Shown here piece by piece: positions 56-45,066 of a stretch of 64,000 nt of DNA. Each line of letters begins with the position of its first letter. Position 1 is the stretch's first letter. The notes beneath the pieces are model-generated. The model saw nothing but the letters and a program-made list of their open reading frames with translations. It was not told where the DNA came from and did no database searches. Both the position numbers and the translations under genes were made by a program. This DNA is from a virus (lineage: Duplodnaviria > Caudoviricetes), in IMG/VR virus record IMGVR_UViG_3300029288_004596, positions 1 through 64,000 of that record; one strand, given 5' to 3'.

Positions 56-1468
56 TCACCTCTTGAAGTCTATACTTAACATTTCTTTAACTGTGGCTAG
101 CGCTCCATCTCCAAACTTCTGTACTATCATATCCTGATAATTCTTATTGGAGTAGTAGTCAATAAAAGCTTTGTCTCTAAACTCCATAACCTTTCTACCC
201 GTTATATGTTTAGTGTCCAGGGGTTTAGCTTTTTCCCCATAGTAGTTGTAGCTTTCCCAGTCAGTGTTGGTCTTGTAGTTCTCATATAGTTTGGATCCAG
301 GGAAGGGCATGGTTATATTGAAGACAGACCACTCGGCGTTTATCTCCTTGGCAAACTCCAGAGTCTCCTTCATAGTCTCCATGTCATCTTCTGGGAGTCC
401 AAACATATAATTTCCCTGTAGGTATATGCCAGCGTCCTTTATTTTCTTTATGCCTTCTAACATAGAAGTCTTGTTTAGTCGCTTATCAGCATCTCCCCTG
501 ACTCTATTGTTGGCAGATTCTATTCCCACAGCTAACCAGTTTATCCCAGCTCTCTTCATCTTTATAAGTAGATCCTGAGGCACATAGTTAAGTCTGGCAT
601 AAGCCCATATGTTGAGCTTGTAGTCTCTGTCTATCAGGTAGTCGCATATCTTTTCCACATGTTCTCTGTGGAAAACAAAGAGTTCATCGGATATCTTAAG
701 GTTCACTGGTCCATACTTATCCACCAGATTGTCTAGCTGTTTTATAGCCCACTCAGGGGACCAGGTCCTATAGCTTTTTGTTAACTCAAAGGCCTCTGAT
801 TTCCTGAAAGGAGCCTGTATGCAGCAGAAGGCGCAGTCATATGGACACCCCAGGGATGTGTAGATAGACACATATGGTTTGTCTTTCCACTGGGGGTCTA
901 GCCCCAGCCAGTTATGGGGTCTAGAGTTGGATATATCCGCAAGGTCCCAGTATATTTCTGGCACAGTCTTGTCCAGATCCTTAACTAGGGGGACATTGCT
1001 TGTTTCTATAACCTTTCCATCTTTCATGTATACAAGGTTGGGAACTTCATTCAGATCCTTAGAGCAGTACAGCTGTACTATGCTACTGAATCCTTCACTA
1101 TCGCATACATAGTCAGCTCCTGTCTGTTTCAGGGAAAGTTCTGGCAAAACTGCCACATGTCCTCCCACTAACAGGACTTTGATATCCTTTAGGAGTTTGC
1201 ATAACTCTATGACATAGGGCATCAGCTGTGTCGAAGCTGACGGGTTCTGCCCATAGACTACTATGGCGACCAGTTTAGGTTTAATAGTTTGTATTTTTTC
1301 AGCGCAGTCTTCTGGGGATAGCCCCAGCGCATGCGCGTCCAATATCTCTACAGGTATTCCCGCATCCTTAGCTTGGGAAGCCAGCATTAGAGCCCATATG
1401 GGCGGTTCCTTAGCCGCCAGGTCTCCAAGAACTCCATAGTGCGGATGTGGATTTATAAATAAAATCAT
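56..1468 (-). CDS. Cobalamin (B12)-binding radical SAM protein (class B methyltransferase-like)
   Basis: N-terminal B12-binding domain (PPIWALMLAS...VGGHVA), TSLGCPYDCAFC CxxxCxxC motif, GIESAN and YMFGLPED motifs. Confidence 0.9.
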   Translation of the reverse strand: MILFINPHPHYGVLGDLAAKEPPIWALMLASQAKDAGIPVEILDAHALGLSPEDCAEKIQTIKPKLVAIVVYGQNPSASTQLMPYVIELCKLLKDIKVLLVGGHVAVLPELSLKQTGADYVCDSEGFSSIVQLYCSKDLNEVPNLVYMKDGKVIETSNVPLVKDLDKTVPEIYWDLADISNSRPHNWLGLDPQWKDKPYVSIYTSLGCPYDCAFCCIQAPFRKSEAFELTKSYRTWSPEWAIKQLDNLVDKYGPVNLKISDELFVFHREHVEKICDYLIDRDYKLNIWAYARLNYVPQDLLIKMKRAGINWLAVGIESANNRVRGDADKRLNKTSMLEGIKKIKDAGIYLQGNYMFGLPEDDMETMKETLEFAKEINAEWSVFNITMPFPGSKLYENYKTNTDWESYNYYGEKAKPLDTKHITGRKVMEFRDKAFIDYYSNKNYQDMIVQKFGDGALATVKEMLSIDFKR

Positions 1469-2406: not shown

Positions 2407-3434
2407 AGTTTCCATTTCTTGGACATATCCTCTAGCAGGAAGGTCAGAGAATCCCTGGCTTTTATAGCCCCTAAGGAATCTGCTAACTCTATCCCATCTT
2501 TCATGTATTGCACTTCTCTGTCCGACACCGGATATTCTAAAAGGTTTTCTTCTGGAGCTAGTGAACCATGTCCTCCTAGGTAGGAGAACCATATGCTTAT
2601 ATTGAGGTCAGTGGCTACTCTTATCAGTTCATTTATTGTGGGAAGGGTAGACCTCATTATTATAGAGTTTATATTTATCCTCCAGTGTTCATGCTTTGCT
2701 GCCTCAGCTGATATAGCTTCCATGTTGGCTTTTATTCTTTCCCATGGGAAGCTCCTTATATGTTCATAGACTTCTCCAGCTCCATCCACGCTCATTGTCA
2801 TGAAGATGTTTTCTAGGTTGCTGAGTTTGTCTATGTAGTAGTTCAGGAGACTGCCATTGGTGGTAAGGTAGAAGCAGGTCCCCTCCATGCCAGTTTCGCA
2901 CAGCCAGTTCAGGAGTTGTTTTCCATCATCTGCAAACAGAGTTTCTCCTCCGGAGGTCCCAAACCTGTCCAGTCTCTTCCAGCCTATCTCTTTTATAAGG
3001 TTCTTTACTCTCTCGACATTCAGAGGGGGTCTTGGTTTGGCGAAGTCCCCACACATCTTGCACTTGAAGTTGCAGGTGGTGCAGTGGGACAAGTATAGTT
3101 CTGGCGGTGGGTAGTCTACAGTGATGACTCCATCCCTATAGGCTTTCTTGACCTTCTCAAAGTGGTCTATGGCTTCTTTGGAGGAGTGAGAGTTATATAA
3201 CTTCATCTCGTCCCCTGTCCCAAAGATATCATAGTCTTCTTTGTATCTGAACTTGTCGCACCCGGGACACCCTGAACTCCTTATGTACTTGTACATGCTG
3301 TTGTTAAAGATAGTCATTATCTGTTTTTCTGTCTGAGGGTAGAACCCATAGTACATATCGGCTCCGCAGCAAGGTCCACCCTTCTTTTCAGTAGATAAAA
3401 TAACTGTCTTCCATGGAAAGAAACACCTACTCAT
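2403..3434 (-). CDS. Radical SAM protein with N-terminal SPASM/twitch-like Cys cluster
   Basis: CNFKCKMC motif, SGGE, TTNGSLL, SVDG; N-terminal CFFPW..PCC..CPGC. Confidence 0.85.
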   Translation of the reverse strand: MSRCFFPWKTVILSTEKKGGPCCGADMYYGFYPQTEKQIMTIFNNSMYKYIRSSGCPGCDKFRYKEDYDIFGTGDEMKLYNSHSSKEAIDHFEKVKKAYRDGVITVDYPPPELYLSHCTTCNFKCKMCGDFAKPRPPLNVERVKNLIKEIGWKRLDRFGTSGGETLFADDGKQLLNWLCETGMEGTCFYLTTNGSLLNYYIDKLSNLENIFMTMSVDGAGEVYEHIRSFPWERIKANMEAISAEAAKHEHWRININSIIMRSTLPTINELIRVATDLNISIWFSYLGGHGSLAPEENLLEYPVSDREVQYMKDGIELADSLGAIKARDSLTFLLEDMSKKWKL

Positions 3435-4359
3435 CAAGTTTTCCTAATCTCCTTAACACTTCTCTCCAGAAAGTGTCTGGAGAACAGTCTTCTTTTACTC
3501 TTTCATATGCTGTGTCAGACATTCTTTTGAGTTTATCCTGATCTCTTAGATGTTCTCTTATTATATCTGCTGACTTTTTAATGTCTGACTTGTCTAATAC
3601 TATGTACTCTTCATCTGGTCTAAGATAATACACAGACTCTGGAAGATTAGTTTTTTCTTCAGCCACTACAGTTCCACAGAGAGCCGCTTCTATAGGTCTT
3701 CCTTTCCTTGCTTGGGAATCCAGTATATCCTCATTCCTTAAAGGAAAGTTTATAGTTATCTTGGATCTCCTGAGGAGGTCTGTAAACTCTAGTTGTGATA
3801 GCCCGGACTTCCTCTGATCTCCAGATACAAATATATCTAGTCCTTCGTTCTGCAGAGAACGTATGAAGTCCAGTCTTCTGGGTACTAGAGAACCCAGATA
3901 ACTTATGTCTATATCTCTTTCCCTGTGGTCATTGAAGTAGGTTTCTATGTCATAGGCTTCCGGTATCAAAGTCATGCCTGGATGTTCTTTGTTGGGACCC
4001 ATTGGTATGACCATGTCGCTTACTTTCATGGTGAAATTGTTTGCTGGAGAATCCTCAGGCAGATTGGAATCCCAGAGCGTTCCGACCACAGGCACTTTGT
4101 ATCTGTACCTTACTAGTTGAAGAGTGGACTCTGCTGGTCTATGCCTTGTAGGGTGTATGCTTGAGTATACCAGGACATCTGATTTGCCCGCCAGCTCCAG
4201 AACCTTGCTGTCATGGTTGGAGGATGGCATATCATAGAAGACTTCCCCTGATCTTGTGGCATACTTGGTTTGTTCTAGGGTCTTGTATAGAGTATAGTAA
4301 GGAGTGCCAGGTCCATATATTTCGCAGTTCTTTTCTCCCACATATCCCACTCTAACCAC
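3427..4359 (-). CDS. GT-B glycosyltransferase (CgeB/Glyco_trans_1_2-like), tandem paralogue 4
   Basis: RDIDISYLG, LRRSKITINFP, RKGRPIEAALCG motifs shared with the three neighbours. Confidence 0.85.
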   Translation of the reverse strand: MVRVGYVGEKNCEIYGPGTPYYTLYKTLEQTKYATRSGEVFYDMPSSNHDSKVLELAGKSDVLVYSSIHPTRHRPAESTLQLVRYRYKVPVVGTLWDSNLPEDSPANNFTMKVSDMVIPMGPNKEHPGMTLIPEAYDIETYFNDHRERDIDISYLGSLVPRRLDFIRSLQNEGLDIFVSGDQRKSGLSQLEFTDLLRRSKITINFPLRNEDILDSQARKGRPIEAALCGTVVAEEKTNLPESVYYLRPDEEYIVLDKSDIKKSADIIREHLRDQDKLKRMSDTAYERVKEDCSPDTFWREVLRRLGKLDE

Positions 4360-5290
4360 TGATTTCCACCTCCTTTAAAACGTCTCTCCAGAAGTTATCC
4401 GCAGAGTGAAGGTTTGTGGCCTTCTCCTTTCCCCTGTTTGCTATTTCCTGTCTCTCCTTGTCATGTTCTAAGTAGTATCTCAAGATGTCAGCTGACTTCT
4501 TAGGATCCTTTCTATCAAGGACTATATATTCTTTGTCTGGAATAAAGTACAGATTAGAGAGTGGGTTCTTTTCTTCAGCTATGGCCGTTCCACACCTGGC
4601 TGCCTCAACTGTCCTTCCCTTCCTCTGATAAGAGTCTGGAAGACTTTCAGAGACTAAAGGGAAGTTAAGGGTTATCTTAGATCTCCTCATAAGATCCGCA
4701 TACTCTGGTTGCTTTATCTGATGCGTCTCCTCTCCAGCTGTGAATATATCTAGTCCTTCCTTTTTTAGGGCTTCTATAAAGACTGTTCTTTCTTCTCTGT
4801 TCCTTCCAAGGAAGCTAATGTCTATATCTCTTACTCTTCCATCATCATAGTAAGTCTCAGAGCATACTGGGAACACGAAGGTTTTGGTGTTTGGATCCTG
4901 TTTATAAGGAGCGTCCATGGCCACCACGAGGTCACACCAGTCAGCCATCGCCTGGTTTATTCTGTAGGAGTGTTCTCCATTGGTGTCTCCAAGAACTCCT
5001 ATCACCGGCACCTTCAGCCTCTTCCTTATAATCTTAAGCATTGAAGGGTCAGGCCCCCTTGGGCAGAAGAAGTAAACTACAAAGTCTGGGGATTTGAGGC
5101 ACTCATTATATAACCATTCGTCATGAGTTCTATAAGGACTTTTTACAGGGCAGTCATAAAAAACAGCTTCCTGTTTATCCACTATAGAACTCTGGGTCAG
5201 AGGCTGGTGTATGAAGTAGTACTCCACTCCTATGCCCATCTCTGGCATCCCGCCAGCGTATTTGTTCCCAGCGTAGATTCCTTTATACAT
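4352..5290 (-). CDS. GT-B glycosyltransferase (CgeB-like), tandem paralogue 3
   Basis: RDIDISFLG, MRRSKITLNFP, QRKGRTVEAARCG. Confidence 0.85.
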   Translation of the reverse strand: MYKGIYAGNKYAGGMPEMGIGVEYYFIHQPLTQSSIVDKQEAVFYDCPVKSPYRTHDEWLYNECLKSPDFVVYFFCPRGPDPSMLKIIRKRLKVPVIGVLGDTNGEHSYRINQAMADWCDLVVAMDAPYKQDPNTKTFVFPVCSETYYDDGRVRDIDISFLGRNREERTVFIEALKKEGLDIFTAGEETHQIKQPEYADLMRRSKITLNFPLVSESLPDSYQRKGRTVEAARCGTAIAEEKNPLSNLYFIPDKEYIVLDRKDPKKSADILRYYLEHDKERQEIANRGKEKATNLHSADNFWRDVLKEVEISG

Positions 5291-6221
5291 AGAGCCCAGC
5301 TTTCTGAGTTATCTCTTTCCAGAAGTTATCTGAGGTATATACAGTTTCCACCATTTCCTTATTGGTTTTTCTTATCTTATCTAGGAGTTGGGGGTGTTCC
5401 AGATGATTCTTTATAATAGAGGCTGATTCTTTAGGATCATGTATGTTCAAGACTATGTATTCCTCATGAGCTTTGTAGTAGTGAGGAACTGGATTGAACT
5501 CTTCAGCCAGTATAGCTCCACACTTCATGGCTTCCAGAGGTCTTCCTTTTCTCTGAAAGGAATCTGGTATATCTCTTGGGAAGCTTATGGTTATCTTGGA
5601 TCTCCTGAGTATATCGGCGTATTCATCCTGGCTCAGGAAGGTTTTTCTAAGTCCAGAGCTAGTGAATACAGGGATTTCTTTTGAGATTCCATTCAGGAAT
5701 TCCCCTCTGAATTTGCTTATGTTCCCAATGAAGGAGACATCTATGTCCCTCTCTCTTCCATCGTCATAGTAGGTCTTGGAACATGCGCTATATAGAGTAG
5801 GCACATGCAAGTATTCCTTGCTGTAATCTGAGCCATCAAGGCAGAAGGCTAGAGAACAGTAGGATGACACCAGTTTGCTCAACCCTTTCAGGAACTCGCT
5901 GTTTGTGTCTCCTACGCATCCTATAACTGGGATATGAAATCTATATCTTATAAGTTTGAGAACTTCAGGGTTGAGTCCCCATGAGGGGTAAGTATACATG
6001 TAGAATATAAAGTCTGGTTTGTTTTCCCTGCAGCTGTCTAGTATCTGGTCGTTTATGTCTGTGTACCCAGCCTTTAATGGCATGTCATAGAATATAACGT
6101 CTACCATATCTATGAAGCTGCACTCCCGCATGGTGTTGTGGAGAACCCAGTAATCTGGGCCTCCCCCTAGTTTAGGGTTGCCATCGCAGTATCTTCCTCC
6201 TATGTATATACACTTAAGCAA
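5283..6221 (-). CDS. GT-B glycosyltransferase (CgeB-like), tandem paralogue 2
   Basis: RDIDVSFIG, LRRSKITISFP, QRKGRPLEAMKCG. Confidence 0.85.
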   Translation of the reverse strand: MLKCIYIGGRYCDGNPKLGGGPDYWVLHNTMRECSFIDMVDVIFYDMPLKAGYTDINDQILDSCRENKPDFIFYMYTYPSWGLNPEVLKLIRYRFHIPVIGCVGDTNSEFLKGLSKLVSSYCSLAFCLDGSDYSKEYLHVPTLYSACSKTYYDDGRERDIDVSFIGNISKFRGEFLNGISKEIPVFTSSGLRKTFLSQDEYADILRRSKITISFPRDIPDSFQRKGRPLEAMKCGAILAEEFNPVPHYYKAHEEYIVLNIHDPKESASIIKNHLEHPQLLDKIRKTNKEMVETVYTSDNFWKEITQKAGLYV

Positions 6222-7182
6222 TGTTCAGTCTCCTGAGCACAGAGTGCCAGAAAGCGTTTGGAGAGTGAGTTGTCTGGCATTCTAGTTTTCCTCTTTCAGC
6301 TATAGCTTTTCTTTCATCTTCATGTTCTAAGTAATACTTTAGTATCCTTACTGATTCTTTGGGGTCTTCCTTTATTAGTTCTATATAGTCTCTTCCTGGA
6401 GTGAAGTAGTAATCTATAGGAGGATGTTTTTCTTCAGCCACAAGAGCCCCGCACCTGGTGGCTTCCAGTATCCTGCCTTTTCTCTGGTAGGAATCAGGCC
6501 AGTCATCTTCTAACATAGGGAAGTTGAGAGTTATCTTAGATCTCCTGAAGAGATTGGCATACTCCTCATTGGATAACTTTATCCTATCATGATCTCCAGC
6601 TGTGAATATCTCTATGCCCTCGGCTTCCAGGGCTTCTATCATGTTCTTCCTTGGGGTGGTTCCTCTCACCAGTCTGTCTTTGTCGCCTAGGAAACTCACA
6701 TCTATATCTCGTTTCCTGTTGTCATCATAGAACAGATGAGAAGTGGCTGGGGATACTGTGTAAAACATGTAGTCATAGTGGAGGTAAGGGGAATCCATAG
6801 CTATATCTATATCACAAGGTTTAGCTATTATTCTGTTCCAATGGTCTCCATCCCTTGTGTTAGTGTCCCACTGAGCCACAGCAACTGGTATGCGAAGTCT
6901 CTTTCTTATCATTAGTATGACGTCACTGGATGGGTTCAGCCATCCAGGGGTGAAGGAGTACATGACCATGTCAGGTCTGTATTTTTCGCAGGCCTTGTAT
7001 AGATACTCATCATGAGACTTGTATCCAGCTGGGATTGGCTCATCATACCACACTGCGTCCACTGGTTCCACTATGGAACTTTCTACCATGGACATGTAAA
7101 GCTCAAAGTATACTGCGCTTATGACATGCGAGTCATTAGTGGGGTTGGTATATTTCCCGCCAGCTAGGATTACCTTATACAT
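6214..7182 (-). CDS. GT-B glycosyltransferase (CgeB-like), tandem paralogue 1
   Basis: RDIDVSFLG, FRRSKITLNFP, QRKGRILEATRCG; ATG at 7182 follows an AGGAG SD. Confidence 0.85.
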   Translation of the reverse strand: MYKVILAGGKYTNPTNDSHVISAVYFELYMSMVESSIVEPVDAVWYDEPIPAGYKSHDEYLYKACEKYRPDMVMYSFTPGWLNPSSDVILMIRKRLRIPVAVAQWDTNTRDGDHWNRIIAKPCDIDIAMDSPYLHYDYMFYTVSPATSHLFYDDNRKRDIDVSFLGDKDRLVRGTTPRKNMIEALEAEGIEIFTAGDHDRIKLSNEEYANLFRRSKITLNFPMLEDDWPDSYQRKGRILEATRCGALVAEEKHPPIDYYFTPGRDYIELIKEDPKESVRILKYYLEHEDERKAIAERGKLECQTTHSPNAFWHSVLRRLNIA

Positions 7183-7759
7183 GCACAACTCCTATGCCAC
7201 AGTGTTTCTGGTTTTCTTCACTCAGTAGTTCAGTACATCTGTACTTTTTCTTTAGCTGTCTCCAGTACACATCCACTTCACAGAACGCTCCAAACTGTGG
7301 GTGTGGGAGTATATCGTGCAAGGCTATAAGCCCTCCGCTTCTAACCAAAGGACTGTACATCTCAAAGTCTTTTCTTATCCCAGCATAGGTGTGGTCTCCA
7401 TCTAGGAAGATGAAGTCATACTTTGAAGCTATAGATGTTATCTGATTATATGTTTCTTGGGAGTGGGAGTTGCCCTGTATAAAGTGGAACTCTACATCAA
7501 AAGGCTCCACTATTTTCTGGTATCCTTCTTTGAATCTCAGGTTATTTTCCACAAACAGATCGCAGGCTACTATCTTGGCTCCTGTAACAGCGTGTTTAGC
7601 CCACTGTCTAAGAGTCCCTCCCTCATTGGTCCCTATCTCCAGGACTCTGGTTGGCCTAAGGTCTGAGTACATCTGCACTAAAGCCTCAAACTCTTCTTTC
7701 ATTTGATAGGCTCTCACTCCTAGGGGTAGTTCTGGATCATAGTAAGTGAAGTTGTTCAT
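7175..7759 (-). CDS. Class I SAM-dependent methyltransferase (Methyltransf_24-like, probable sugar O-methyltransferase)
   Basis: VLEIGTNEGGT, DFIFLDGDHTY, GGLIALHD motifs. Confidence 0.85.
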   Translation of the reverse strand: MNNFTYYDPELPLGVRAYQMKEEFEALVQMYSDLRPTRVLEIGTNEGGTLRQWAKHAVTGAKIVACDLFVENNLRFKEGYQKIVEPFDVEFHFIQGNSHSQETYNQITSIASKYDFIFLDGDHTYAGIRKDFEMYSPLVRSGGLIALHDILPHPQFGAFCEVDVYWRQLKKKYRCTELLSEENQKHCGIGVVHV

Positions 7760-8727
7760 TGGTTGCCTCTGTTATAGTATATTATGCTTGACCCCATAGA
7801 GTCAACTGAGAAAGGCACATGTATGGGGTTGCCCAAGGCTTCCAGTATGCCAGGATGTTTTTCTGGCTCAGCATAGATCATCAGGAATCCTCCAGATCCA
7901 GCTCCTATAAGCTTTGCTGAAACAGCCCCGGCTTTCTTGGCCTTGTCATACATATCATCTATGAGAGGAGTGGTTATCTTATCAGAAAAGGCCTTCTTAA
8001 GTTTCCAGCCTTCATCTATCAGTAAACCAAACCTGTTCCAGTCTCCATCTCTTACAGCCATGAGTCCTTCTCTTGTCAGGACCTGCATCTCGGTTAGTTC
8101 CCTTTCAGCTTTCTTGAAGTCATAACACTTGGTGACATCGTTGGCCACTCTGGACATGCCAGTAAAGACTAACAGGATATTCCTAGTTATCTTTTCAGCG
8201 TTTCCTATAATGGGGGTTACGCTGAAGTCCTTGTCTTTAAACTCCACATAGTTGAATCCTCCATAAGCCGCCAGTATCTGATCCTGAGAACCTACACATT
8301 CTCCTATAAGGTTCTGTTCTATGTGAATAGCTATCTCAGCCAGTTCTTTCTTGGAAGTGTAAAGTCCCTGAGAGGCTCTCACAGCATTTACTAGTCCTAC
8401 TGTAAAGGAAGAGGATGAACCTATTCCCGATCTGGCTGGAATATCCCCATCGTGGTGTATCTCTATATTGTTAGTTTTGTCCAGATGCTTAAGGGTTTCT
8501 CTTATAGATGGGTGATCCAGTTCATCCACATGTGAACAGAGTTCTATATTGGAATATACAGCTCTTATGTTGTAGTCGAAGAATCTTGGGAGTTCTCTGC
8601 ATGTGATATAACAGTATTTGTCTATAGCCATGGCTATGACAGCCCCGCCATGTTCTTTGTACCATACAGGGTAGTCCGTACCTCCTCCAAAGAAACTTAT
8701 CCTGAAAGGAGTTCTGCTAATTACCAT
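7756..8727 (-). CDS. hddA: GHMP kinase, D-glycero-alpha-D-manno-heptose-7-phosphate kinase-like
   Basis: SRTPFRISFFGGGTD, PARSGIGSSSS, GSQDQ, KLIGAGSGG. Confidence 0.85.
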   Translation of the reverse strand: MVISRTPFRISFFGGGTDYPVWYKEHGGAVIAMAIDKYCYITCRELPRFFDYNIRAVYSNIELCSHVDELDHPSIRETLKHLDKTNNIEIHHDGDIPARSGIGSSSSFTVGLVNAVRASQGLYTSKKELAEIAIHIEQNLIGECVGSQDQILAAYGGFNYVEFKDKDFSVTPIIGNAEKITRNILLVFTGMSRVANDVTKCYDFKKAERELTEMQVLTREGLMAVRDGDWNRFGLLIDEGWKLKKAFSDKITTPLIDDMYDKAKKAGAVSAKLIGAGSGGFLMIYAEPEKHPGILEALGNPIHVPFSVDSMGSSIIYYNRGNQ

Positions 8728-9733: not shown

Positions 9734-10415
9734 GCATAGCTCTTTTTATCTTATTAGCCCATTCATCTATCTGAGATTCAGACAACCCATGATATAAGCT
9801 GGAGTCATGTTCATAGGCTTCTTTATTCCAGTAGGCAGCATATGTGGAGTCCAAAACTCCTTTTCCGGCGGTGGGGTGCATATGTTCTATGATCACATCT
9901 GGAAGATAGTAGGACACATTCCCCACCCTGCCCATCACATCCCTCAATATGAGATCCTGAAAGAGATGGTGAAACTCTTCTCTATGTACCCAACCTAAAG
10001 CCTTTACTAGCTTGGCTCCCATAGCTGGGTGAGTTCCCAGGGTATTGTCATGGTAACCATCGTTGCCATAGACAAAAGCCCAACTATTAGCTTTCTTTAT
10101 AGTCTCTACTATAGTCTTATCCCAGCCTTTGGTTCTGTATCTTATATCGTCTGCGGTAAAGGCCATGCCCACATAGTTATCTATCCTCGACATCACATGT
10201 TCATTTATAGTTCTAGGGGTATTTCTTCTTTCCTCCACTATATAGGTCACATCTTTTTCCACTGGGTATGGGCTTTCGTCATCGCTGTCCAGGACTACTA
10301 TAATGTCTGAGTATCCGAAGGTTGTCTCCCTCCAGGTTTTCAACATCCTAGCCAGTTTATCTGGCCTGCCTCTGGAAGGGCATATCATTAAGAGTTTATC
10401 TATAACTTCACCCAT
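9720..10415 (-). CDS. GT-A (family 2-like) glycosyltransferase
   Basis: ICPSRGRP, VLDSDD, TADD DxD-like motif, IEHMHP. Confidence 0.8.
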   Translation of the reverse strand: MGEVIDKLLMICPSRGRPDKLARMLKTWRETTFGYSDIIVVLDSDDESPYPVEKDVTYIVEERRNTPRTINEHVMSRIDNYVGMAFTADDIRYRTKGWDKTIVETIKKANSWAFVYGNDGYHDNTLGTHPAMGAKLVKALGWVHREEFHHLFQDLILRDVMGRVGNVSYYLPDVIIEHMHPTAGKGVLDSTYAAYWNKEAYEHDSSLYHGLSESQIDEWANKIKRAMHENS

Positions 10416-11068
10416 TTTATCTCCTTAGCCGCCAGTCTAAAGGACTCTGGGGTGCCTATATCCAGGAATCCATGTATAGATCTGTATCCCAGGATATTCT
10501 TATATTCCTGGAGGACCTCCTCCATAGAGTACTTCTTTTTCTCAGGTCTCTTGGTTTTGTTAACTTCCTTAAGCATGGCTATTCCAGCATAAGCTTTGTT
10601 GCCTCCACCCCATCTCACAAAGCCTCTGTTGTTTACGCTCACTAGGGAAGCGGTTGTGCTAGGAGGATCGCATAAAAGCATAGTGGCTTTGACTGAGGAG
10701 TTGTCATGGTAGTCTTCCATTCCCTTGAGGTCTCCAAAGAAATAAGTGTCGCCATTTCCAACCACTACATCTGTGAGACCAAACTTGTCTACCGCTTTCA
10801 TGAGAGCCCCCCCAGTTCCTAAGGGCTCGTCTTCCTCAGAGTATTCTATGTTTATTCCTCTGTAGGAAACTCCCACCATGTCTTTTATAAGCTGAGCCTG
10901 GTAACCTACTGAGAGTATTATGTCTTTAGCCCCATAGTTACTATAGCTCTCTAAGAGATATAGTCCAAAGGGTATTCCATTTATAGGGGCTAGAAACTTT
11001 GGGAGTTCATCTATTTCACTTTTGAGACGGGTTCCAAATCCTCCCGCTAACAGCGTTACTGGTTTCAT
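10400..11068 (-). CDS. hddC: Sugar-1-phosphate nucleotidyltransferase (heptose-1-phosphate guanylyltransferase-like)
   Basis: LAGGFGTRL, PKFLAPING, EPLGTGGAL, NGDTY, FLDIGTPES; single short domain in the same operon as hddA. Confidence 0.75.
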   Translation of the reverse strand: MKPVTLLAGGFGTRLKSEIDELPKFLAPINGIPFGLYLLESYSNYGAKDIILSVGYQAQLIKDMVGVSYRGINIEYSEEDEPLGTGGALMKAVDKFGLTDVVVGNGDTYFFGDLKGMEDYHDNSSVKATMLLCDPPSTTASLVSVNNRGFVRWGGGNKAYAGIAMLKEVNKTKRPEKKKYSMEEVLQEYKNILGYRSIHGFLDIGTPESFRLAAKEIKWVKL

Positions 11069-11076
11069 CTTTTCTC

Positions 11077-12003
11077 CTAGAGGTAGTTGCAGTCCTTATC
11101 TCCAAGCATGGAGTAAGCTTTCATTAGTTGAGTTATACCAAGGTCTAGTCCTCTGCTAGCCATAAATCCCTTGCCCCACAGTTTCTTCGAGGACACAATA
11201 TAGTTTCTCTTGTCTGGGTCTTCCCTTGTGTCATCTGTGGTTATCCTGAAGGATGGGATGCGCTCCTTGACTTTCAGGGCCATATCCAGTTTGGACATGT
11301 TGATAGAGTCGTTTCCCAGGTTATAGACTTCTCCCTTCATAGAGTCGTAGTTGTCTAAGCAGTATGCAAAGCAGTCTGCCACATCCTGTATATGGACATA
11401 GTTTCTCATGAAGTGAGGCTCGAATATGTCCACTCCTCTATTGAAGTAGGCTCTTCTCACAAAGTCATTAACTAATAGGTCTAGTCTCATTCTGGGCGAA
11501 CATCCAAAGACTGTGGCTAACCTCAAGGTTATAGAGTCTGTGGTCATTACAGCTTTTTCTCCAGCAGCCTTTGTTCTTCCATAGTGGGTTATAGGCTCTA
11601 AGGGAGTTTCTTCTGTGCAGTAGAACTCTCCTGTCTGAGTCCCATATCCGCTGTTGGTGTTAGGATATATAAGTTTCTGCTCAGGCTTCTTTCTACTGGC
11701 AATATATTCTATAGTTTCTTTATTGACTCTGGTGGCGTCATCATAATTGGCGTCGCATATCTCCGCTCCAACGTATGCGGCCAGAGGTATAATTGCATCT
11801 GCCTCATCTAATAGGAGATCCAAAGTGTCATGGTTTAGGACGTCCCCTTTTATAAAAGTCAGGTTCTCCTGGTCACATAGGTGGAGGAGGTTCTCTCTGC
11901 CATATCTCTGGATGTCCAGCACAGTCACCTCATGTTTTGGCAGCAGGGTCTTTGTAAGGACTGATCCTATATAGCCAGCCCCTCCTGTTATAAGTACTCG
12001 CAT
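11077..12003 (-). CDS. NAD-dependent epimerase/dehydrogenase, Cj1427/WcaG-like (GDP-heptose C4 oxidoreductase-like)
   Basis: ITGGAGYIGS, IIPLAA, YPNTNSGYG, YGRTK, RLATVFGxSPRMRLDLLVNDF, EDPDKRNY. Confidence 0.85.
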   Translation of the reverse strand: MRVLITGGAGYIGSVLTKTLLPKHEVTVLDIQRYGRENLLHLCDQENLTFIKGDVLNHDTLDLLLDEADAIIPLAAYVGAEICDANYDDATRVNKETIEYIASRKKPEQKLIYPNTNSGYGTQTGEFYCTEETPLEPITHYGRTKAAGEKAVMTTDSITLRLATVFGCSPRMRLDLLVNDFVRRAYFNRGVDIFEPHFMRNYVHIQDVADCFAYCLDNYDSMKGEVYNLGNDSINMSKLDMALKVKERIPSFRITTDDTREDPDKRNYIVSSKKLWGKGFMASRGLDLGITQLMKAYSMLGDKDCNYL

Positions 12004-12377
12004 AGACCTCTATTCCTTTCTGGGGATACCCCTGTAGCCATGGGCTCAACGCCCTTAGGCTTCTTATCATTTACCACTATTCTAGGACCTCTTCCAAGAC
12101 CCATGATGAGCAGGTCATATTCTATCCCATAGTGTTTCAGCATTCTTTCAGTGTCAGCTCTGGCTGATTCTTTTCTCCCAGTGGTCACTATGATTGTGTA
12201 ACAGTCCTCCGCGTACTTAGCCAGGAACTCCTTCACTCCAGGCAATAACTTGGGCCATACAGTCTGGTAAGCGCAGTCATGGAGAATTTGAGTCCCATGG
12301 ATCTGGGTCTCCATGTCTCCTGTGTGTTCTATGATGGTGCCGTCTATGTCTATGAATATAGTCCCTGGATAGCTCAC
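11988..12377 (-). CDS. Small capless HAD-family phosphatase
   Basis: IFIDIDGT motif I, VTTGR motif II, YDLLIMG, VNDK. Confidence 0.8.
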   Translation of the reverse strand: MSYPGTIFIDIDGTIIEHTGDMETQIHGTQILHDCAYQTVWPKLLPGVKEFLAKYAEDCYTIIVTTGRKESARADTERMLKHYGIEYDLLIMGLGRGPRIVVNDKKPKGVEPMATGVSPERNRGLCEYL

Positions 12378-12967
12378 TCAACAATACCTCTTAGGAGGTT
12401 TTTGCCAACCTCGCTGGCCGAACTCACCCTTATAAGTTTCTCGGGGTTAAACTTCCTAGCTGCTAGTTCCCCGAAGTTGGTGCCTTCTATGACAATACAC
12501 TCCTCAGGTTTTATCCCAAGGAGCGTGGCTGTCTTTGTATATAGTTCTGTTCTAGGGGTTGCCTGGTCCCTGCCAGTTATTGTATTTATGTATAGTCCCA
12601 AGTCCATCCTGTCTATGATCATCTCCACTATGTGGGCGCTGATCTCTGAACATACCCCTATCTTCCTGGCGTACAGGGCTAAGGCGCTAAGCAGGGTAGT
12701 TTTCCTGGGATCCACTTCTATCTTGTCTATCTCTGAGAGGATACACTCCTCTATCAGCCTGTAGGTCCTGTCCTTATCCAGTTCAGCTATGTTACATAGA
12801 ACATCTAGTCTGTACTGCAGACTAAACTGCCCAAGGTCTTCTCGGGTATATATCTCTATGAGTTCTGGATGACCCCTCTTAGTCAGAGTCTTGCAGATAG
12901 CGGAGTCATATAAGTCATCGGTGTTAACGATGACATTTTCTAGTCCAAAAATTACGCCCTTGTTCAT
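12374..12967 (-). CDS. HAD-fold protein (beta-PGM/CbbY-like) with degenerate catalytic motifs
   Basis: VIFGLENVIVNT in place of IFDxDGV, LGIKPEECIVIEG in place of ED; overall HAD-IA layout. Confidence 0.7.
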   Translation of the reverse strand: MNKGVIFGLENVIVNTDDLYDSAICKTLTKRGHPELIEIYTREDLGQFSLQYRLDVLCNIAELDKDRTYRLIEECILSEIDKIEVDPRKTTLLSALALYARKIGVCSEISAHIVEMIIDRMDLGLYINTITGRDQATPRTELYTKTATLLGIKPEECIVIEGTNFGELAARKFNPEKLIRVSSASEVGKNLLRGIVE

Positions 12968-13023
12968 TTATCACCCACAAAAAATAGGCTGGCGAAGGCC
13001 AACCTATTATAAATAATATCCAT
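12964..13023 (-). CDS. Putative 19-aa leader peptide MDIIYNRLAFASLFFVGDK
   Basis: GGAGG SD 8 nt upstream of ATG 13023; its TGA overlaps the ATG of the next gene; it reads through the hairpin at 12979-13008. Confidence 0.45.
   Translation of the reverse strand: MDIIYNRLAFASLFFVGDK
12979..13008 (-). terminator. Intrinsic terminator-like hairpin at the head of the sugar operon
   Basis: AATAGGTTGGC-CTTC-GCCAGCCTATT followed by a T run on the minus strand. Confidence 0.7.
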
Positions 13024-13037
13024 ATGGTTGTCCTCCA

Positions 13038-13051
13038 CTTATATTATAGAA
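13038..13051 (-). promoter_or_regulatory. Candidate promoter (CTATAATATA core) for the sugar operon
   Basis: TATAAT at 13048-13043; the 10-nt core is shared with sites at 18.86, 46.31 and 54.95 kb. Confidence 0.55.
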
Positions 13052-13089
13052 TAGTAGACAACTTTTTCTCTGCTAGTGTGTAGGAGAAC

Positions 13090-13119
13090 AAAAAAAAGAG
13101 CTAGGTTAATACCTAGCTC
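13090..13119 (-). terminator. Intrinsic terminator after rmlB
   Basis: Perfect GAGCTAGG/CCTAGCTC stem, 6-nt loop, T8 tail on the minus strand. Confidence 0.85.
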
Positions 13120-13164
13120 GATTACAGAGAGACTGCATGGTCTATGAACAGTATAGCACAGGCG

Positions 13165-14121
13165 TTAGTTCAGGTAAATCCATCTCTCTCTATGGTCTCT
13201 ATACCAATTTACAGTCTCTATCAGTCCATCCTGGAAGTTCCACTTCCTTGTCCATCCTAGCTTCTCAGTCTTGGAAGGATCCATGCTATACCTATAGTCA
13301 TGGCCTGGTCTGTCTGTCACGTATGAGATTAAAAGCTCTGGTTTTCTCAGTATCCTGAGTATATTCCTAACCAGGTCTATCCCAGTTATCTGTTCTCTGG
13401 CTCCGAGATTGTATATGCCTCCAGGAGTTCCCTTCTCTAAGACTAGGTCTATGCCAGAGACATGGTCTTCCACATGCATATAGTCCCTTACAGCTTTCCC
13501 ATTTCCATATAAAGGAATAGGCTCATCTCTTAGAGCTTTTATAGTGAATACTGGGATGGCTTTCTCTGGATACTGATAAGGGCCATAGGTGTTGGAGCCT
13601 CTGGTTATCACAGTGTCCATCCCATAGCTGTTGTGGTAACTCATCACAAAGTGTTCTGCCGCAGCCTTACTGGCTGAGTATGGATTCCTGGGGCCATAGT
13701 TGCTGGTCTCTATGGAATGATATGTCGAGTCCAGAAGTTCTGAATACACTTCGTCAGTTGAAACCTGGAGGAACCTCTTTACCCCTATTCTCTTGGCTTC
13801 ATCTAGGAGAGTGACTACTCCTTCTATGTTGCTTCTGATAAAAGGCTTGCAGTTTCCCAGGGCTCTATCCACATGACTTTCCGCCGCGAAGTTTACCACT
13901 GTGTCGCATCCTTGCATGGCTTCTCTCACATCTGTAGGTTCAGCTATATTCCCTGGAAAGAAAGTTACTTTCTCACGAAGACCTTCCAAGTTCTCCAGCT
14001 TCCCAGCATATGTCAGGGAGTCTATCACTGTTATCTGCCAGTCAGGGTGGCGCTTGACTGCCCACCTGACATAGTTGGAACCTATGAATCCAGCTCCTCC
14101 AGTAACTAGTATCTTTCTCAT
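13165..14121 (-). CDS. rfbB: dTDP-glucose 4,6-dehydratase
   Basis: LVTGGAGFIGSN, DSLTYAG, NFAAESHVDR, STDEVY, PYSASKA, YGPYQYPEK, DRPGHDYRY. Confidence 0.95.
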   Translation of the reverse strand: MRKILVTGGAGFIGSNYVRWAVKRHPDWQITVIDSLTYAGKLENLEGLREKVTFFPGNIAEPTDVREAMQGCDTVVNFAAESHVDRALGNCKPFIRSNIEGVVTLLDEAKRIGVKRFLQVSTDEVYSELLDSTYHSIETSNYGPRNPYSASKAAAEHFVMSYHNSYGMDTVITRGSNTYGPYQYPEKAIPVFTIKALRDEPIPLYGNGKAVRDYMHVEDHVSGIDLVLEKGTPGGIYNLGAREQITGIDLVRNILRILRKPELLISYVTDRPGHDYRYSMDPSKTEKLGWTRKWNFQDGLIETVNWYRDHRERWIYLN

Positions 14122-15941: not shown

Positions 15942-15947
15942 AGTATA

Positions 15948-15958
15948 ATTATATCACA
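15948..15958 (-). promoter_or_regulatory. Extended -10 promoter (TGTGATATAAT), probably leaderless transcript
   Basis: TRTGn-TATAAT ends 6 nt before ATG 15941; no SD. Confidence 0.6.
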
Positions 15959-16819: not shown

Positions 16820-16951
16820 TTAGTCCTCCACTATGTAAGTTAGGGTTTCGTTTCCGCAGACAGGACAAGAGTCATTGTCTGGGTCGTTCTCAAAGGTCTC
16901 TGACACTAAACCTTCCCATCCACAGTCTTCGCAGATGACTTCTGGGTCCAT
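16820..16951 (-). CDS. 43-aa acidic zinc-ribbon protein MDPEVICEDCGWEGLVSETFENDPDNDSCPVCGNETLTYIVED (absent from ORF track)
   Basis: Hand translation; CxxC...CxxC; GGAG SD; overlaps the 3' end of rmlA and fills the gap to the next gene. Confidence 0.7.
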   Translation of the reverse strand: MDPEVICEDCGWEGLVSETFENDPDNDSCPVCGNETLTYIVED

Positions 16952-17793
16952 ACAGGATCTCCTGTTCTTCTCAGAGCCTCCCCATACTGAGATTTGATAT
17001 TTTTTATGAGTTCTTTAAACTGAGCGGTGGTTATGTATCCTTCCCTCCAGGCTACTTCTTCTGGAGCGGACACTAATAGTCCTTGTCTTTTCTCTATGGT
17101 CCTCACATACTCTGAGGCTTCCAGCAGATCATCAAAGTTGCCTGTGTCAAACCAGGCTATTCCTCTTCCCAGAGTCTTTATGGTGGCCGACTCCTCAAGG
17201 TACTTATTATTAAGGTCTGTTATTTCCAGCTCTCCTCTGGGAGAAGGCTCTAGAGACTTGGCTATCTCAGAAGCGTTCTCATCGTAGAAGTACAGTCCTA
17301 TGATAGCTAGGTTGCTCTTGGGTTCTGAGGGTTTCTCCACTATCTTGCCATCTGATAGGATGCCATATAATTCAGGATGATCTATTGGGGTCACAAATAA
17401 AGTGGTGGAGTCTGAGTTGTTGGCTTCTTTAAGCAGTCTTCTCAGGTTCCCTCCAAAGAGAATGTTGTCTCCCAGCATGAGAGCGCAGGGAGAACCATCA
17501 AGGTAGTTTTCAGCTATTATAAGAGCCTGGGCTATTCCCTTAGGTTCCATCTGTATCTCATAGTCTATGGATATGCCCCACTGGGAGCCGTCTCCCAAGA
17601 GATGCCTGAAGCTCTCTTCGTATTCAGGAGTGGAGATGATAAGGAAGTCCCTTATCCCAGCCATCATCAAAGTCGAGAGCGGGTAGTAGATAGTGGGCTT
17701 ATTGTATACGGGAATTAATTGTTTGCTGAGAACTGCGGTGATGGGTCTCAGTCTGGTTCCAAGCCCACCAGCTAGGAGTATTCCTTTTCTCAT
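16906..17793 (-). CDS. rfbA: Glucose-1-phosphate thymidylyltransferase
   Basis: GILLAGGLGTRLRPIT, SKQLIPVYNKP, LGDN, EKP, PSPRGELEIT, GRGIAWFDTG. Confidence 0.95.
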   Translation of the reverse strand: MRKGILLAGGLGTRLRPITAVLSKQLIPVYNKPTIYYPLSTLMMAGIRDFLIISTPEYEESFRHLLGDGSQWGISIDYEIQMEPKGIAQALIIAENYLDGSPCALMLGDNILFGGNLRRLLKEANNSDSTTLFVTPIDHPELYGILSDGKIVEKPSEPKSNLAIIGLYFYDENASEIAKSLEPSPRGELEITDLNNKYLEESATIKTLGRGIAWFDTGNFDDLLEASEYVRTIEKRQGLLVSAPEEVAWREGYITTAQFKELIKNIKSQYGEALRRTGDPVWTQKSSAKTVDGKV

Positions 17794-18590: not shown

Positions 18591-18604
18591 GTTGTCCTCC
18601 TAGT

Positions 18605-34785: not shown

Positions 34786-36416
34786 ATGGTGACCTCATTG
34801 GAGAATATAACTGTGCTGGAGAAACCGTCATATAAAGAAGCATATATTATGTCTGGGCCTACTATATCCACTGTGGCTATGCCTTCCTCATTGGTCCTCA
34901 CCTCAGTTGGGTTTGTTATACCATTCTTGGAAATGAATTTTATTGTCACTCCCGCATTAGTTAGGATTACTCCATCATTTCTGGTTATGCACGCCTTGAG
35001 TCTATTTATGGAAGTCTCGCTTGTGTCCTTGGCCAGGAAAAGTTTTGGTATGAAAGACCCTGAGGTGTAGTTTATATTGGACGCTCCCACGCATACTGCG
35101 GAAACTACATCCGTTACAGCCAGCCCGCTAGAGGATATAGTCATAGTCATGGTTCCAGCCGCTGAAGGTTTCCATGTGTAAGTGACTTCTCCCAGGAAGT
35201 TTGTTATCTGAGTAGATGGCAGTACAGTCTGTACTAATCCTGGACCTGAGATGGCGTAGTTTAGACACACTCCAGCCACAGGATTGTTATTTTTGTCTAC
35301 AGCCCTGGCTCTTATCCTTACAGGACATCCTGTTCCTGATAGTATAGCCACTCTTGATGGGGCTGATCTGGCATATATCCTGGCGGCTTCCTTGTATGGG
35401 TCTATAGCTGGAGCCAGATAAATAAATCCTGGGACTATCCCAGAATACATGGGATTTAATTGCAGGTATGACAGGTCTGTAGTTAGGACTTCTGAGATAT
35501 CCTGATAATCATCCTTTTCGCCCTCAAAGTCAAGAGTTGTGTTTCCTGACGTGGTAGAATAGGCATGGATATGGTTCTTGGTTAACCCAAAGGAGTTGTT
35601 GACTCTATATAATACCCCCACTACTTCCTTGGCTGGAACTGCGATTGGGAGTTGAATGACATTTCCAGACACAGAAGAGGAGTATATGGTCATTGAGGAT
35701 AAACCCCATGTCCCTACTCTTTTTACTACTGGTCTAGCTCCATAATAGGTAGCTATGTTTTCATGCCTGAGCCTTATTCTGGAATTGGCGTCTACTAACA
35801 GTTCTTCCTGCAGCAGGACTACTTCAGAACCTGTAGGCTCATAGGAGTAGGTATAAAATACTGTAGAGCATGGGTCTGTCTCTGAGGATACTGTCAGTTC
35901 TCTGGATCTTGGGTTGAAATAAAAATAATCAGATTCCTTTACCAGACTGGAGGATGGAACTTCTTTTAAGGAGGTGTGCAGAGTGGAGATCACATGCTCT
36001 ACATTGCCTGGCACAGTTATTTTCCACTTGTTGTTCCCAACGCAAGTCCAAGATCCACTGGTCATAACTGCTATGGAACCCACAACCCTCTTATAGCTTG
36101 TGGTTCCCTTGGTCATAAAGACTGGCCCATATTGAGATATTGCCGAGGTGTCTAAGGTGGAACATATTATGGAACTTGTGGTTACAGAAGATGGCGCCAG
36201 ATTTATTATGTTCTGATATTTCTTGGAGAATAAGTATCTTTCTTCAGTCCCTAGGTAGTACCATCCCTTGTGGATCATGGGATACCATCTGCTGTCAGCA
36301 CTCTTTTTTATTGACACCTTGAGGTCAAGGTTATCCCCAACTCCTATCTCAAGCATAGTTGACAGAGGCGAAGTTATAGTTTGTCCTGAGCTTCCTGACT
36401 CAAAAAATGTGCTCAC
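34782..36416 (-). CDS. Structural protein with Ig-like (Big_1/invasin-type) domains
   Basis: VDKNNNPVAGV...TNFLGEV and TIKF...TNEEGIATV. Confidence 0.65.
   Translation of the reverse strand: MSTFFESGSSGQTITSPLSTMLEIGVGDNLDLKVSIKKSADSRWYPMIHKGWYYLGTEERYLFSKKYQNIINLAPSSVTTSSIICSTLDTSAISQYGPVFMTKGTTSYKRVVGSIAVMTSGSWTCVGNNKWKITVPGNVEHVISTLHTSLKEVPSSSLVKESDYFYFNPRSRELTVSSETDPCSTVFYTYSYEPTGSEVVLLQEELLVDANSRIRLRHENIATYYGARPVVKRVGTWGLSSMTIYSSSVSGNVIQLPIAVPAKEVVGVLYRVNNSFGLTKNHIHAYSTTSGNTTLDFEGEKDDYQDISEVLTTDLSYLQLNPMYSGIVPGFIYLAPAIDPYKEAARIYARSAPSRVAILSGTGCPVRIRARAVDKNNNPVAGVCLNYAISGPGLVQTVLPSTQITNFLGEVTYTWKPSAAGTMTMTISSSGLAVTDVVSAVCVGASNINYTSGSFIPKLFLAKDTSETSINRLKACITRNDGVILTNAGVTIKFISKNGITNPTEVRTNEEGIATVDIVGPDIIYASLYDGFSSTVIFSNEVTI

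Positions 36417-45066: not shown

Follow-up and report, generated by a model that had tools for sequence, protein, structure and literature searches.

The first 64,000 nucleotides of the IMG/VR phage record IMGVR_UViG_3300029288_004596 (Duplodnaviria; Caudoviricetes), hereafter the window, contain an operon of nucleotide-sugar enzymes and glycosyltransferases (GTs), referred to as the sugar island, and an additional GT gene lodged within the baseplate operon. The question raised by this locus is to what acceptor the glycan would be attached. A preliminary description of the window had viewed these genes as a candidate virion glycosylation system with a modified-heptose pathway, seven GTs and tail acceptors rich in Ser, Thr and Gly. 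We examined the full record (G000; 216,899 bp, 93% complete by CheckV) alongside three related phage genomes from IMG/VR, labelled G001, G002 and G003 for comparison. The interpretation that we favor, with a probability of about 0.45, is that this phage lineage encodes a conserved and fully cytoplasmic glycosylation system, with a product that the phage would add to its own tail and baseplate proteins while the particle assembles. Coordinates of the features are collected in Table 1.

The operon had been described as 13 kb of sugar enzymes, GTs, a methyltransferase and two radical S-adenosylmethionine (SAM) enzymes. Pfam and NCBIfam searches found these genes, but the length did not hold: the chain crosses the record junction into seven further sugar genes and spans 19–20 kb. 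The G000 record is a circularly closed assembly of ~217 kb, because its terminal bases 2–127 are repeated at 216,774–216,899. Across this junction, on the minus strand, the stop codon of the B12-binding radical SAM gene and the ATG start of the gene that follows overlap (AAGAGGTGACTATGA, an ATGA overlap). The seven genes at the far end encode a 155-aa protein of unknown function, a 578-aa thiamine pyrophosphate (TPP) enzyme of the acetolactate-synthase type, which we take to resemble YerE, an RmlC-like epimerase, a second Methyltransf_24 enzyme, two Fcl-like short-chain dehydrogenases/reductases (SDRs) and a DegT-family enzyme with RfbH as its best match. Nearly all junctions in the island are overlaps or gaps of ≤15 nt, and as judged from this arrangement some 22 sugar genes are translationally coupled in a single chain. 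The island runs from a promoter-like motif, found shortly downstream of rmlB, to a RecU-like gene. Two paralogous small proteins of unknown function (34% identity) are encoded in this area of G000, one by the first gene past the radical SAM gene, inside the island (216364–216831), and the other beyond the RecU end (208344–208901); G001 and G002 each have a single gene that matches the two.

The island occupies the same locus, between RecU-like and DnaB-like genes, in G001 (211 kb, 98% complete, ~120 proteins in common with G000) and in G002 (143 kb, 72% complete, ~75 proteins in common). Ten genes are common to the three islands at ~30–64% identity; these encode the sugar kinase, the nucleotidyltransferase, an RmlD-like SDR (SDR308), a 129-aa HAD phosphatase (HAD129), a GT-A enzyme, the DegT/RfbH-like enzyme, the TPP enzyme, the B12 radical SAM enzyme, a methyltransferase and at least one GT of the tandem type. 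SDR308 is the most conserved member of the island (64% identity in G001 and 53% in G002), and the corresponding values are 59% and 45% for HAD129, 57% and 51% for the DegT/RfbH-like enzyme, and 53% and 50% for the TPP enzyme. Outside these ten genes the islands differ. The tandem-type GTs number four in G000, one in G001 and two in G002, and G002 has in addition a GmhA-like SIS protein beside its HAD gene, a ribulose-phosphate 3-epimerase, another aminotransferase, a methyltransferase and a SPASM protein. By this comparison the island is composed of a conserved core and a variable periphery. Misassembly with a bacterial exopolysaccharide locus, which the preliminary description had named as fatal to its proposal, was rejected on the basis of the uniform GC content, the coupling across the junction and the synteny of the island in two other phage genomes; the island is phage-borne.

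The GT reported to lie between the gp25-like and baseplate J genes was confirmed at 42082–45066, and four phages, whose copies have 42–60% identity, keep it in the interval from the sheath-initiator gene to Baseplate_J. It matches PF13524 and PF13692, and BshA and MshA in a profile search of the PDB, and by sequence it belongs to GT-B (GT4-like) families. The nucleotide-sugar (K/E) motif FNxxKSxLKxxE...GIP is kept in three orthologues. Two insertions interrupt the G000 protein, and the limits of both are set exactly by comparison with the intein-less orthologues P0006 and P0007 (389 and 386 aa), which align without gaps to the three extein pieces with 52–60% identity. Both qualify as inteins, the second starting with Cys and ending in HN before the Ser of the extein; the first has no Pfam match and its penultimate His is missing. 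In G003 the protein is encoded in the same place, has 742 aa and carries the same C-terminal tail, and its similarity to the intein-less form breaks off at residue 258, the site of the second intein. Inteins are thus found within nucleotide-sugar motifs in two of the four baseplate GTs, and because they sit in its conserved motifs the baseplate GT is apparently a conserved and selected enzyme. For the C-terminal SEC-C tail, the PDB search found the SecA C-terminal peptide and YchJ, and the tail is present in the G001, G002 and G003 orthologues. In SecA, the SEC-C tail binds SecB and ribosomes. Inteins were also observed to be mobile among core genes of these phages: DNA polymerase A has 1103 aa in G002, with intein and LAGLIDADG matches, vs 655 aa for the copy in the window (54980–56947), and a candidate further case is the DnaB-like gene, which encodes 797 aa in G001 (142877–145270) vs 323 aa in G000.

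All seven GTs named in the preliminary description were located, and an eighth (PF13712) was added in the replication module, where it sits among clamp, clamp-loader, single-stranded DNA-binding protein (SSB) and dUTPase genes and had no tblastn match in GenBank phages. The six assigned to the operon differ in their support: four are firm, the 231-aa GT-A enzyme is well supported and the 338-aa protein is a probable GT. The four firm ones lie in tandem with overlapping stop and start codons, have 33–45% pairwise identity and share 61 invariant columns. A word-based homologue search with a tandem GT returned three weak relatives only, a profile search of the PDB with the tandem GTs returned no match, and tblastn against 50,697 GenBank phage records returned no homologue. 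The GT-A enzyme has no Pfam match; its PSRGR, DSDD (DxD) and DD motifs are kept in three orthologues, and its model was assigned by Foldseek to GT-A transferases in the PDB with probability 1.0 at a TM score of just 0.37–0.54. Its ESM Atlas clusters are 85–100% viral, and homologues were found in Streptomyces, Arthrobacter and Pelagibacter phages. The 338-aa protein matched an ESM Atlas cluster that is 100% PF13524 (score 0.97, TM 0.86) and had no Pfam or NCBIfam match; its AlphaFold model, with a predicted local distance difference test score of 41, was not used. Alignment of the tandem-GT profile by hhalign to the 338-aa protein and to the baseplate GT was not significant. The GTs are acidic to neutral, with pI values of 5.5–6.6.

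The modified-heptose pathway that had been proposed is plausible from the HddA-, HddC- and GmhB-like set, but the assignments fall below the curated cut-offs and G000 has no GmhA. The best NCBIfam match of the kinase is HddA (2.2e-35; 122.7 bits vs a cut-off of 600), followed by mevalonate kinase and fucokinase, and that of the nucleotidyltransferase is HddC (105.5 bits vs 300). HAD129 matched acid-phosphatase-B and PNKP-type HAD families only, with no NCBIfam match. A search for GmhA (SIS_2) gave no match in G000 or G001, and for this step G000 would have to rely on its host; the 183-aa SIS protein in the G002 island scored above the cut-off for PF01380 (33.2 bits). As had been stated, rmlA and rmlB lie nearby, with RmlB scoring above its cut-off and RmlA missing its own by 2 bits. 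The RmlC-like protein scored 122 vs a cut-off of 155.75, and the sole RmlD-like match was weak (SDR308, 55.9 vs 224). The start of the Gmd/RmlB-like SDR gene is probably near 2415, since the Rossmann domain of the protein begins at residue 66.

The B12 radical SAM enzyme matches HpnJ best in NCBIfam, far under the cut-off, with AprD4 and PhpK-type enzymes among the weaker matches, and its candidate roles are C-methylation or rearrangement of the sugar. It has thousands of bacterial homologues with 43–49% identity. Four bacterial contigs were found to contain a cassette of much the same gene set, made up of a nucleotidyltransferase, a GHMP kinase, a TPP enzyme split into E1 alpha and beta, and the B12 radical SAM enzyme, with a GmhB-like HAD, an SDR and a DegT enzyme each in three of the four and GmhA in one locus. 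These cassettes lie in surface-glycan loci that contain YfhO, DedA, GT2, GT87 or a PF13524 GT, the last adjoining the cassette in one locus. Two differences from the phage island were noted: the phage TPP enzyme is a single chain resembling acetolactate synthase and YerE, and YfhO, DedA and GT87 are added in the bacterial loci. The cassette supports, at the level of gene content, a heptose-type substrate, TPP-dependent carbon transfer and radical SAM tailoring. A metagenomic protein of 696 aa, P0034, is a natural fusion of a TPP domain to a B12 radical SAM enzyme with 47% identity to that of the phage, which argues that the two predicted enzymes act on the same intermediate. Our literature search on the combination of TPP, radical SAM and heptose enzymes found no paper on this cassette.

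Among viruses, at least 127 IMG/VR contigs encode the B12 radical SAM enzyme. Within the best 80 viral loci, SDR308 is nearby in 53, a DegT enzyme in 43 and a tandem-type GT in 16. The best homologue in the 50,697 GenBank phage records is from Streptomyces phage SF3, at 25% identity. With no close homologue of the radical SAM enzyme and none at all of the tandem GTs among these records, the earlier statement that no described phage is known to coat its virion by means of its own heptose and radical SAM chemistry is supported.

The preliminary description reported no flippase, Wzy, ABC exporter, polyprenyl-phosphate transferase or membrane GT in the window, and this absence extends to the whole of G000. 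A Kyte-Doolittle scan found no protein with ≥4 hydrophobic segments in G000, G001 or G002. The scan is crude, but Wzx, Wzy, ABC permeases and polyprenyl-phosphate transferases have many helices, and since no protein reaches four segments none of them can be present. Judged in this way, the island system is entirely soluble. The further argument that an absence of export genes implies a cytoplasmic acceptor does not follow, because soluble GTs could use host carriers and flippases; the GTs of the bacterial lipopolysaccharide core and O-unit are themselves soluble or peripheral, without transmembrane helices.

A sequence motif, CTATAATATA, occurs four times in the window (13040, 18864, 46306 and 54944) vs 0.21 expected, and again at genome positions 109493, 187010 and 187568. 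Six of these seven copies are intergenic, intergenic DNA being 7% of the genome, and the extended consensus is (g/c)CTATAATATA(a/t)agt. In G001, too, TATAATAT is the top upstream 8-mer. The motif is likely a promoter element of the lineage. Genes preceded by it in G000 are the sugar operon, the baseplate operon, a pair encoding proteins of 317 and 2544 aa, an M23 endolysin-like gene and the gene for endonuclease VII, a set that has a probable late character. The motif also lies ahead of the first gene of the island in G001, and the G002 orthologue of the first gene of the baseplate operon has TATAATATA at −34. The sharing of a promoter core between the sugar operon and the tail genes, which had been noticed earlier, was therefore upheld, but the specific co-regulation read from it was not, as G001 also has the motif ahead of dUTPase and nuclease genes. 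On this distribution, the shared motif would be the main promoter type of the lineage.

Tail proteins rich in Ser, Thr and Gly had been put forward as acceptors on the strength of this composition. Their content of these residues, 24–31%, is ordinary for fibre proteins, and we do not count it as acceptor evidence. The tripeptide Thr-Ser-Gly (TSG) is, in turn, enriched in an 894-aa tail protein (10 copies vs 1.0 expected, z 8.7) and in the G000 tail block of 15 proteins at 18600–42000 (20 vs 4.9, z 7.2; z 3.1 when the 894-aa protein is removed), vs 22 copies and 20 expected in the rest of the proteome (z 0.5). The tail blocks of G001 and G002 gave z values of 3.4 and 2.4. Among the permutations GTS, GST, STG, SSG and TTG, no enrichment was found in tail proteins.

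Table 1. Location of the features discussed; coordinates are positions in the window unless marked as G000 genome positions.
Feature	Position	Strand	Evidence or remark
B12-binding radical SAM enzyme, 470 aa	56..1468	-	PF02310 + PF04055; orthologues 46% (G001), 41% (G002)
NDP-sugar 4,6-dehydratase-like SDR (Gmd/RmlB-like)	1465..2592	-	PF16363 1.5e-63; gmd 133.8 bits, cut-off 415
Twitch-domain radical SAM enzyme, 344 aa	2403..3437	-	PF04055; NF033640 N_Twi_rSAM 86.9 bits, cut-off 170
Four tandem GT-B glycosyltransferases (310, 312, 312, 324 aa)	3427..7188	-	PF13524 in 4/4
SAM methyltransferase, CmcI / rhamnosyl O-methyltransferase type	7175..7759	-	PF13578, PF04989; 53% orthologue in G001
GHMP sugar kinase, HddA-like	7756..8727	-	PF00288/PF08544
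Probable GT-B, CgeB/YkvP-like, 338 aa	8717..9733	-	ESM Atlas only
GT-A fold glycosyltransferase, 231 aa	9720..10415	-	Motifs, Foldseek, ESM Atlas
Sugar-1-phosphate nucleotidyltransferase, HddC-like	10400..11068	-	PF00483
SDR reductase/epimerase, RmlD-like (SDR308)	11077..12003	-	PF01370, PF04321
Two HAD phosphatases: 129-aa GmhB/PNKP-like, 197-aa beta-phosphoglucomutase-like	11988..12967	-	PF03767/PF25109, PF13419; beta-phosphoglucomutase family match
Promoter-like motif CTATAATATA	13040..13049	-	73 nt upstream of first gene of sugar operon
dTDP-glucose 4,6-dehydratase RmlB	13165..14121	-	TIGR01181 389.5 bits, cut-off 365.1
Glucose-1-phosphate thymidylyltransferase RmlA	16906..17793	-	TIGR01207 358.3 bits, cut-off 360.65; PF00483 9.6e-59
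894-aa tail protein, candidate acceptor (lead)	36413..39097	-	10 dispersed Thr-Ser-Gly tripeptides
Baseplate J-like wedge protein	40969..42072	-	PF04865 6.5e-32
Baseplate GT-B glycosyltransferase, 994-aa precursor, exteins 389 aa in total	42082..45066	-	PF13524, PF14528, PF02810
SecA-type zinc-binding SEC-C motif, C-terminal in baseplate GT	42097..42153	-	PF02810 2.5e-08
Intein 2, 373 aa, residues 492-864, LAGLIDADG, in FNxxK/SxLK	42475..43593	-	PF14528 2.6e-21, PF14890; ends THN/S
Intein 1, 232 aa, residues 176-407, in GWSGGN/TH	43846..44541	-	Cys start, Asn end, then Thr
gp25-like sheath initiator / baseplate wedge	45068..45460	-	PHROG baseplate wedge subunit; 58% G001 orthologue matches PF10934
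Second CTATAATATA copy	46306..46315	-	14 nt upstream of first gene of baseplate operon
Thymidylate-synthase homologue	G000 195239-196054, outside window	+	Among SSB, dUTPase, clamp-loader and clamp genes
Eighth GT (PF13712, GT-A)	G000 199285-199929, outside window	+	45% identity to G001 gene

Taken together, the leads toward an acceptor on the virion are the baseplate GT, the virus-dominated GT-A family, the probable late-type promoter, the acidic-to-neutral GTs and the TSG excess in the tail. The constant exotic sugar in phages that probably have different hosts also fits a phage-intrinsic target, and the capsid and tail-tube glycans of mycobacteriophages (as summarised in PMC12619734) and the autonomous glycosylation of giant viruses (PMC9614988; PMC4691112) are precedents. 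According to the pathway that we envisage, a heptose phosphate, probably of host origin, would become activated in passing through the HddA-like kinase, the GmhB-like phosphatase and the HddC-like nucleotidyltransferase, while RmlA, RmlB and the RmlC-like enzyme would provide a dTDP-6-deoxyhexose by a parallel route. The NDP-sugar would then be tailored by the Gmd-like 4,6-dehydratase, the RfbH/ColD-like pyridoxal phosphate enzyme and the TPP enzyme, which may add a two-carbon branch, with further modification by the B12 radical SAM enzyme (C-methylation or rearrangement), the twitch radical SAM enzyme and several SDR reductases. Six soluble GTs could build the oligosaccharide and two CmcI-type methyltransferases could cap it, and the SEC-C-tailed GT, made from the baseplate operon, would act on or beside the proteins of that operon. 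A bolder version, which we consider a long shot, is that the baseplate GT is the priming protein O-glycosyltransferase and that its tail docks on the ribosome (or on SecB), so that baseplate and tail-fibre proteins made from the same mRNA would be glycosylated co-translationally; the tandem GTs would extend the chain, yielding a strain-variable tail coat of heptose-derived, two-carbon-branched and radical-SAM-methylated sugar.

Several observations weigh against an acceptor on the virion. The virion target is a candidate drawn from gene content, and soluble GTs can also act on lipid-linked host intermediates; the homologous bacterial cassette, as described above, stands in cell-surface glycan loci beside YfhO, DedA and GT2. 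The choice of the TSG motif was made with these same tail proteins already in view, and most of its copies are unconserved in the orthologues of the 894-aa protein (10 in G000 vs 4 and 3). The presence of the promoter motif ahead of G001 dUTPase and nuclease genes counts on the same side. Distant relatives of the baseplate GT, with 22–27% identity, were found in 180 viral contigs and sit in replication and other modules: in phAPEC8 they form a cluster of four GTs beside the primase and polymerase genes, and in Arthrobacter phage Mimi they belong to a cluster of GTs and a nucleotidyltransferase. A search for Baseplate_J in 48 records with such relatives found adjacency in G003 only, and the wider family is for that reason not baseplate-linked. 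We found nothing useful in the literature on the phAPEC8 GTs. In addition, no mycobacteriophage was among the listed matches and organism tallies when the GT-A enzyme, the baseplate GT and a tandem GT were searched by tblastn against the 50,697 phage records.

The alternative that the island remodels the host envelope is somewhat unlikely in our judgement. It would have the soluble GTs act at the inner face of the membrane on host lipid-linked intermediates, such as the LPS core on lipid A or O or capsule units carried on Und-PP, with export by the host MsbA, Wzx or ligase, and the altered surface would block superinfecting phages or stop the loss of progeny on debris. The lack of transmembrane helices in bacterial core and O-unit GTs is in keeping with such a role, as are the surface-glycan setting of the bacterial cassette (YfhO, DedA/VTT, GT2 and a Kdo-related gene), the variation in GT content between related phages, which is like that of serotype loci, and the possibility that the SEC-C tail brings the baseplate GT to the Sec/SecB system. 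It is also the published reading, as modification of host O-antigen or capsule, for the comparable clusters of jumbo cyanophages and pelagimyophages (PMC7824862; PMC7029224). Yet the three genomes encode no initiating polyprenyl-phosphate transferase, flippase, polymerase or ligase, and phages with ~45% protein identity have retained the ten core genes of one exotic sugar, whereas host acceptors should differ; moreover, one GT is fixed inside the baseplate operon, and since lysis and structural genes have the promoter motif too, the island may come on too late to keep competitors out, a timing that is inferred. A different soluble product, be it a free oligosaccharide, a glycosylated small molecule or glycosylated non-virion proteins (of the host, or of the phage's own large microprotein families), seems improbable. 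The TPP enzyme, the aminotransferase, the B12 radical SAM enzyme and the deoxysugar genes do resemble antibiotic sugar tailoring, the SEC-C tail makes host pre-secretory proteins conceivable targets, and metabolite-type clusters have been proposed for some cyanophages (Iyer et al.; PMC7824862). Against this, no aglycone pathway, carrier or exporter was found, the bacterial homologues lie in polysaccharide loci and not in metabolite clusters, and the baseplate position of one GT would be left unexplained.

That the sugars are instead placed on hydroxylated or hydroxymethylated pyrimidines of the phage DNA, with several GTs extending the chain, we regard as very unlikely. The precedents are the glucosylated hydroxymethylcytosine of T4 and the poly-glycosylated 5-hydroxycytosine of RB69, DLP3 and RL38JI, for which the phages, like G000, encode NDP-sugar synthesis and several GTs (PMC13326640). 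This idea is kept alive by the eighth GT in the replication module, by the RecU-like and DnaB-like genes that flank the island, and by one lower-ranked ESM Atlas neighbour cluster of the 338-aa protein, in which 40% of the members carry a T4 glucosyltransferase domain. G000 also encodes, outside the window, a divergent thymidylate-synthase homologue whose best PDB match is a CMP hydroxymethylase. Compared with Escherichia coli ThyA, it keeps C146, R166, D169 and N177, with Ser aligned to L143. A Ser at this position has been tied to hydroxymethyl products, and D169N is the signature of 5-hydroxy-dCMP synthases (PMC13326640); the homologue may be a dUMP hydroxymethylase, but with D169 and N177 kept it has neither the D169N signature nor the cytosine-specific Asp. 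The island is nonetheless present in G001, in which a profile search and tblastn found no thymidylate-synthase homologue; none was found either in G002, at its 72% completeness. A search for Tet/JBP gave no match in the four genomes, nor in 14 control genomes, and so does not show absence. The acidic GTs and the strong avoidance of palindromic restriction sites in G000, G001 and G002 also speak against modified DNA. The avoided 4-bp palindromes are specific to each genome, with mean z values of −5.6 to −8.0 (observed vs expected counts are 90 vs 1042 for CTAG and 460 vs 885 for GTAC in G001, 368 vs 660 for TGCA in G002, and 359 vs 582 for GGCC in G000). For 6-bp palindromes, 16–34% have z < −2 vs 3%, and several sites have zero copies, among them TTCGAA and CAATTG in G000. 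This pattern suggests that the DNA of these phages is exposed to restriction enzymes.

As to the genomic setting, the long open reading frames of the window are all on the minus strand, its GC content is even (0.42–0.47) and no tRNAs were found in it. DNA of this uncultured phage is present in one public sequencing run, a landfill metagenome that is its probable source, and no RNA run is listed. Megablast of 25 kb against GenBank phages gave no match, the family-A DNA polymerase has at most ~26% identity to the polymerases of the listed phages, and IMG/VR scans with the single proteins Baseplate_J and a tandem GT returned no relatives or weak ones only. A comparison of RmlA with 185,579 genomes found 50–57% identity in many phyla, and because the matches are so spread no host can be inferred from it.

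Sugar and GT clusters in large phages have been described before (PMC7824862; PMC7029224), as have four core GT groups in moraphages (PMC12619734). The P-SSM2-type 15-gene clusters of jumbo cyanophages (Iyer et al., 2021; PMC7824862) and the GT-rich hypervariable regions by the tail fibres of pelagimyophages (PMC7029224) are like the island in being co-oriented, in containing one to four SDRs, a sugar kinase with a nucleotidyltransferase, HAD phosphatases, methyltransferases and paralogous GTs, in varying among related phages, in their position by tail genes and in their putative acceptors. The island agrees with the cluster description of Iyer et al. in its SDR paralogues, its kinase and nucleotidyltransferase, its paralogous GTs and its polymorphism, but its kinase is of the GHMP (HddA-like) type and not PfkB. 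Unlike these large-phage clusters, G000 has a core with TPP, B12 radical SAM and RfbH/ColD-like enzymes and a baseplate-operon GT with inteins and a SEC-C tail. Mycobacteriophages glycosylate capsid and tail-tube subunits at their C-termini with few GTs and host sugars (as summarised in PMC12619734). The likeness would lie in phage GTs working in the cytoplasm on virion proteins without export machinery, and the difference lies in the eight GTs and complete sugar factory of G000, with no GT homology detected among the matches listed. Giant viruses autonomously glycosylate their virion proteins, as in the capsid of chlorovirus PBCV-1 and the fibrils of Megavirinae (PMC9614988; PMC10117803; PMC4691112), and are alike in virus-made rare sugars of bacterial type, soluble GTs and sugar methylation, the glycans being attached to virion proteins in the cytoplasm. 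They differ in their eukaryotic hosts and GT families, and the sections of these sources that were used report no heptose, TPP or radical SAM chemistry. What appears particular to G000 is the combination of the TPP, B12 radical SAM and heptose-type core with the double-intein, SEC-C-tailed GT in the baseplate operon, as set out here in a three-genome comparison.

Irrespective of the acceptor, the cassette with TPP, B12 radical SAM and heptose-type enzymes would represent an uncharacterised sugar pathway common to many bacteria. The baseplate GT offers a small experimental handle through its intein-less orthologues of 386–389 aa, and the purpose of such clusters could come to light in phages that are in culture and encode homologues of these GTs, namely Mimi, Racecar and Atuin of Arthrobacter, Streptomyces phages of the BE/BK type and phAPEC8-like coliphages. 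Should co-translational, operon-local glycosylation of the virion prove true, it would involve a sugar chemistry undescribed in any virus. If the glycan is on the virion, self-glycosylation by phages would extend from a few actinobacteriophages to widespread uncultured large phages, with consequences for how hosts are recognised, how receptor-mimicking or lectin-like defences are escaped and how antigenic the phages are.

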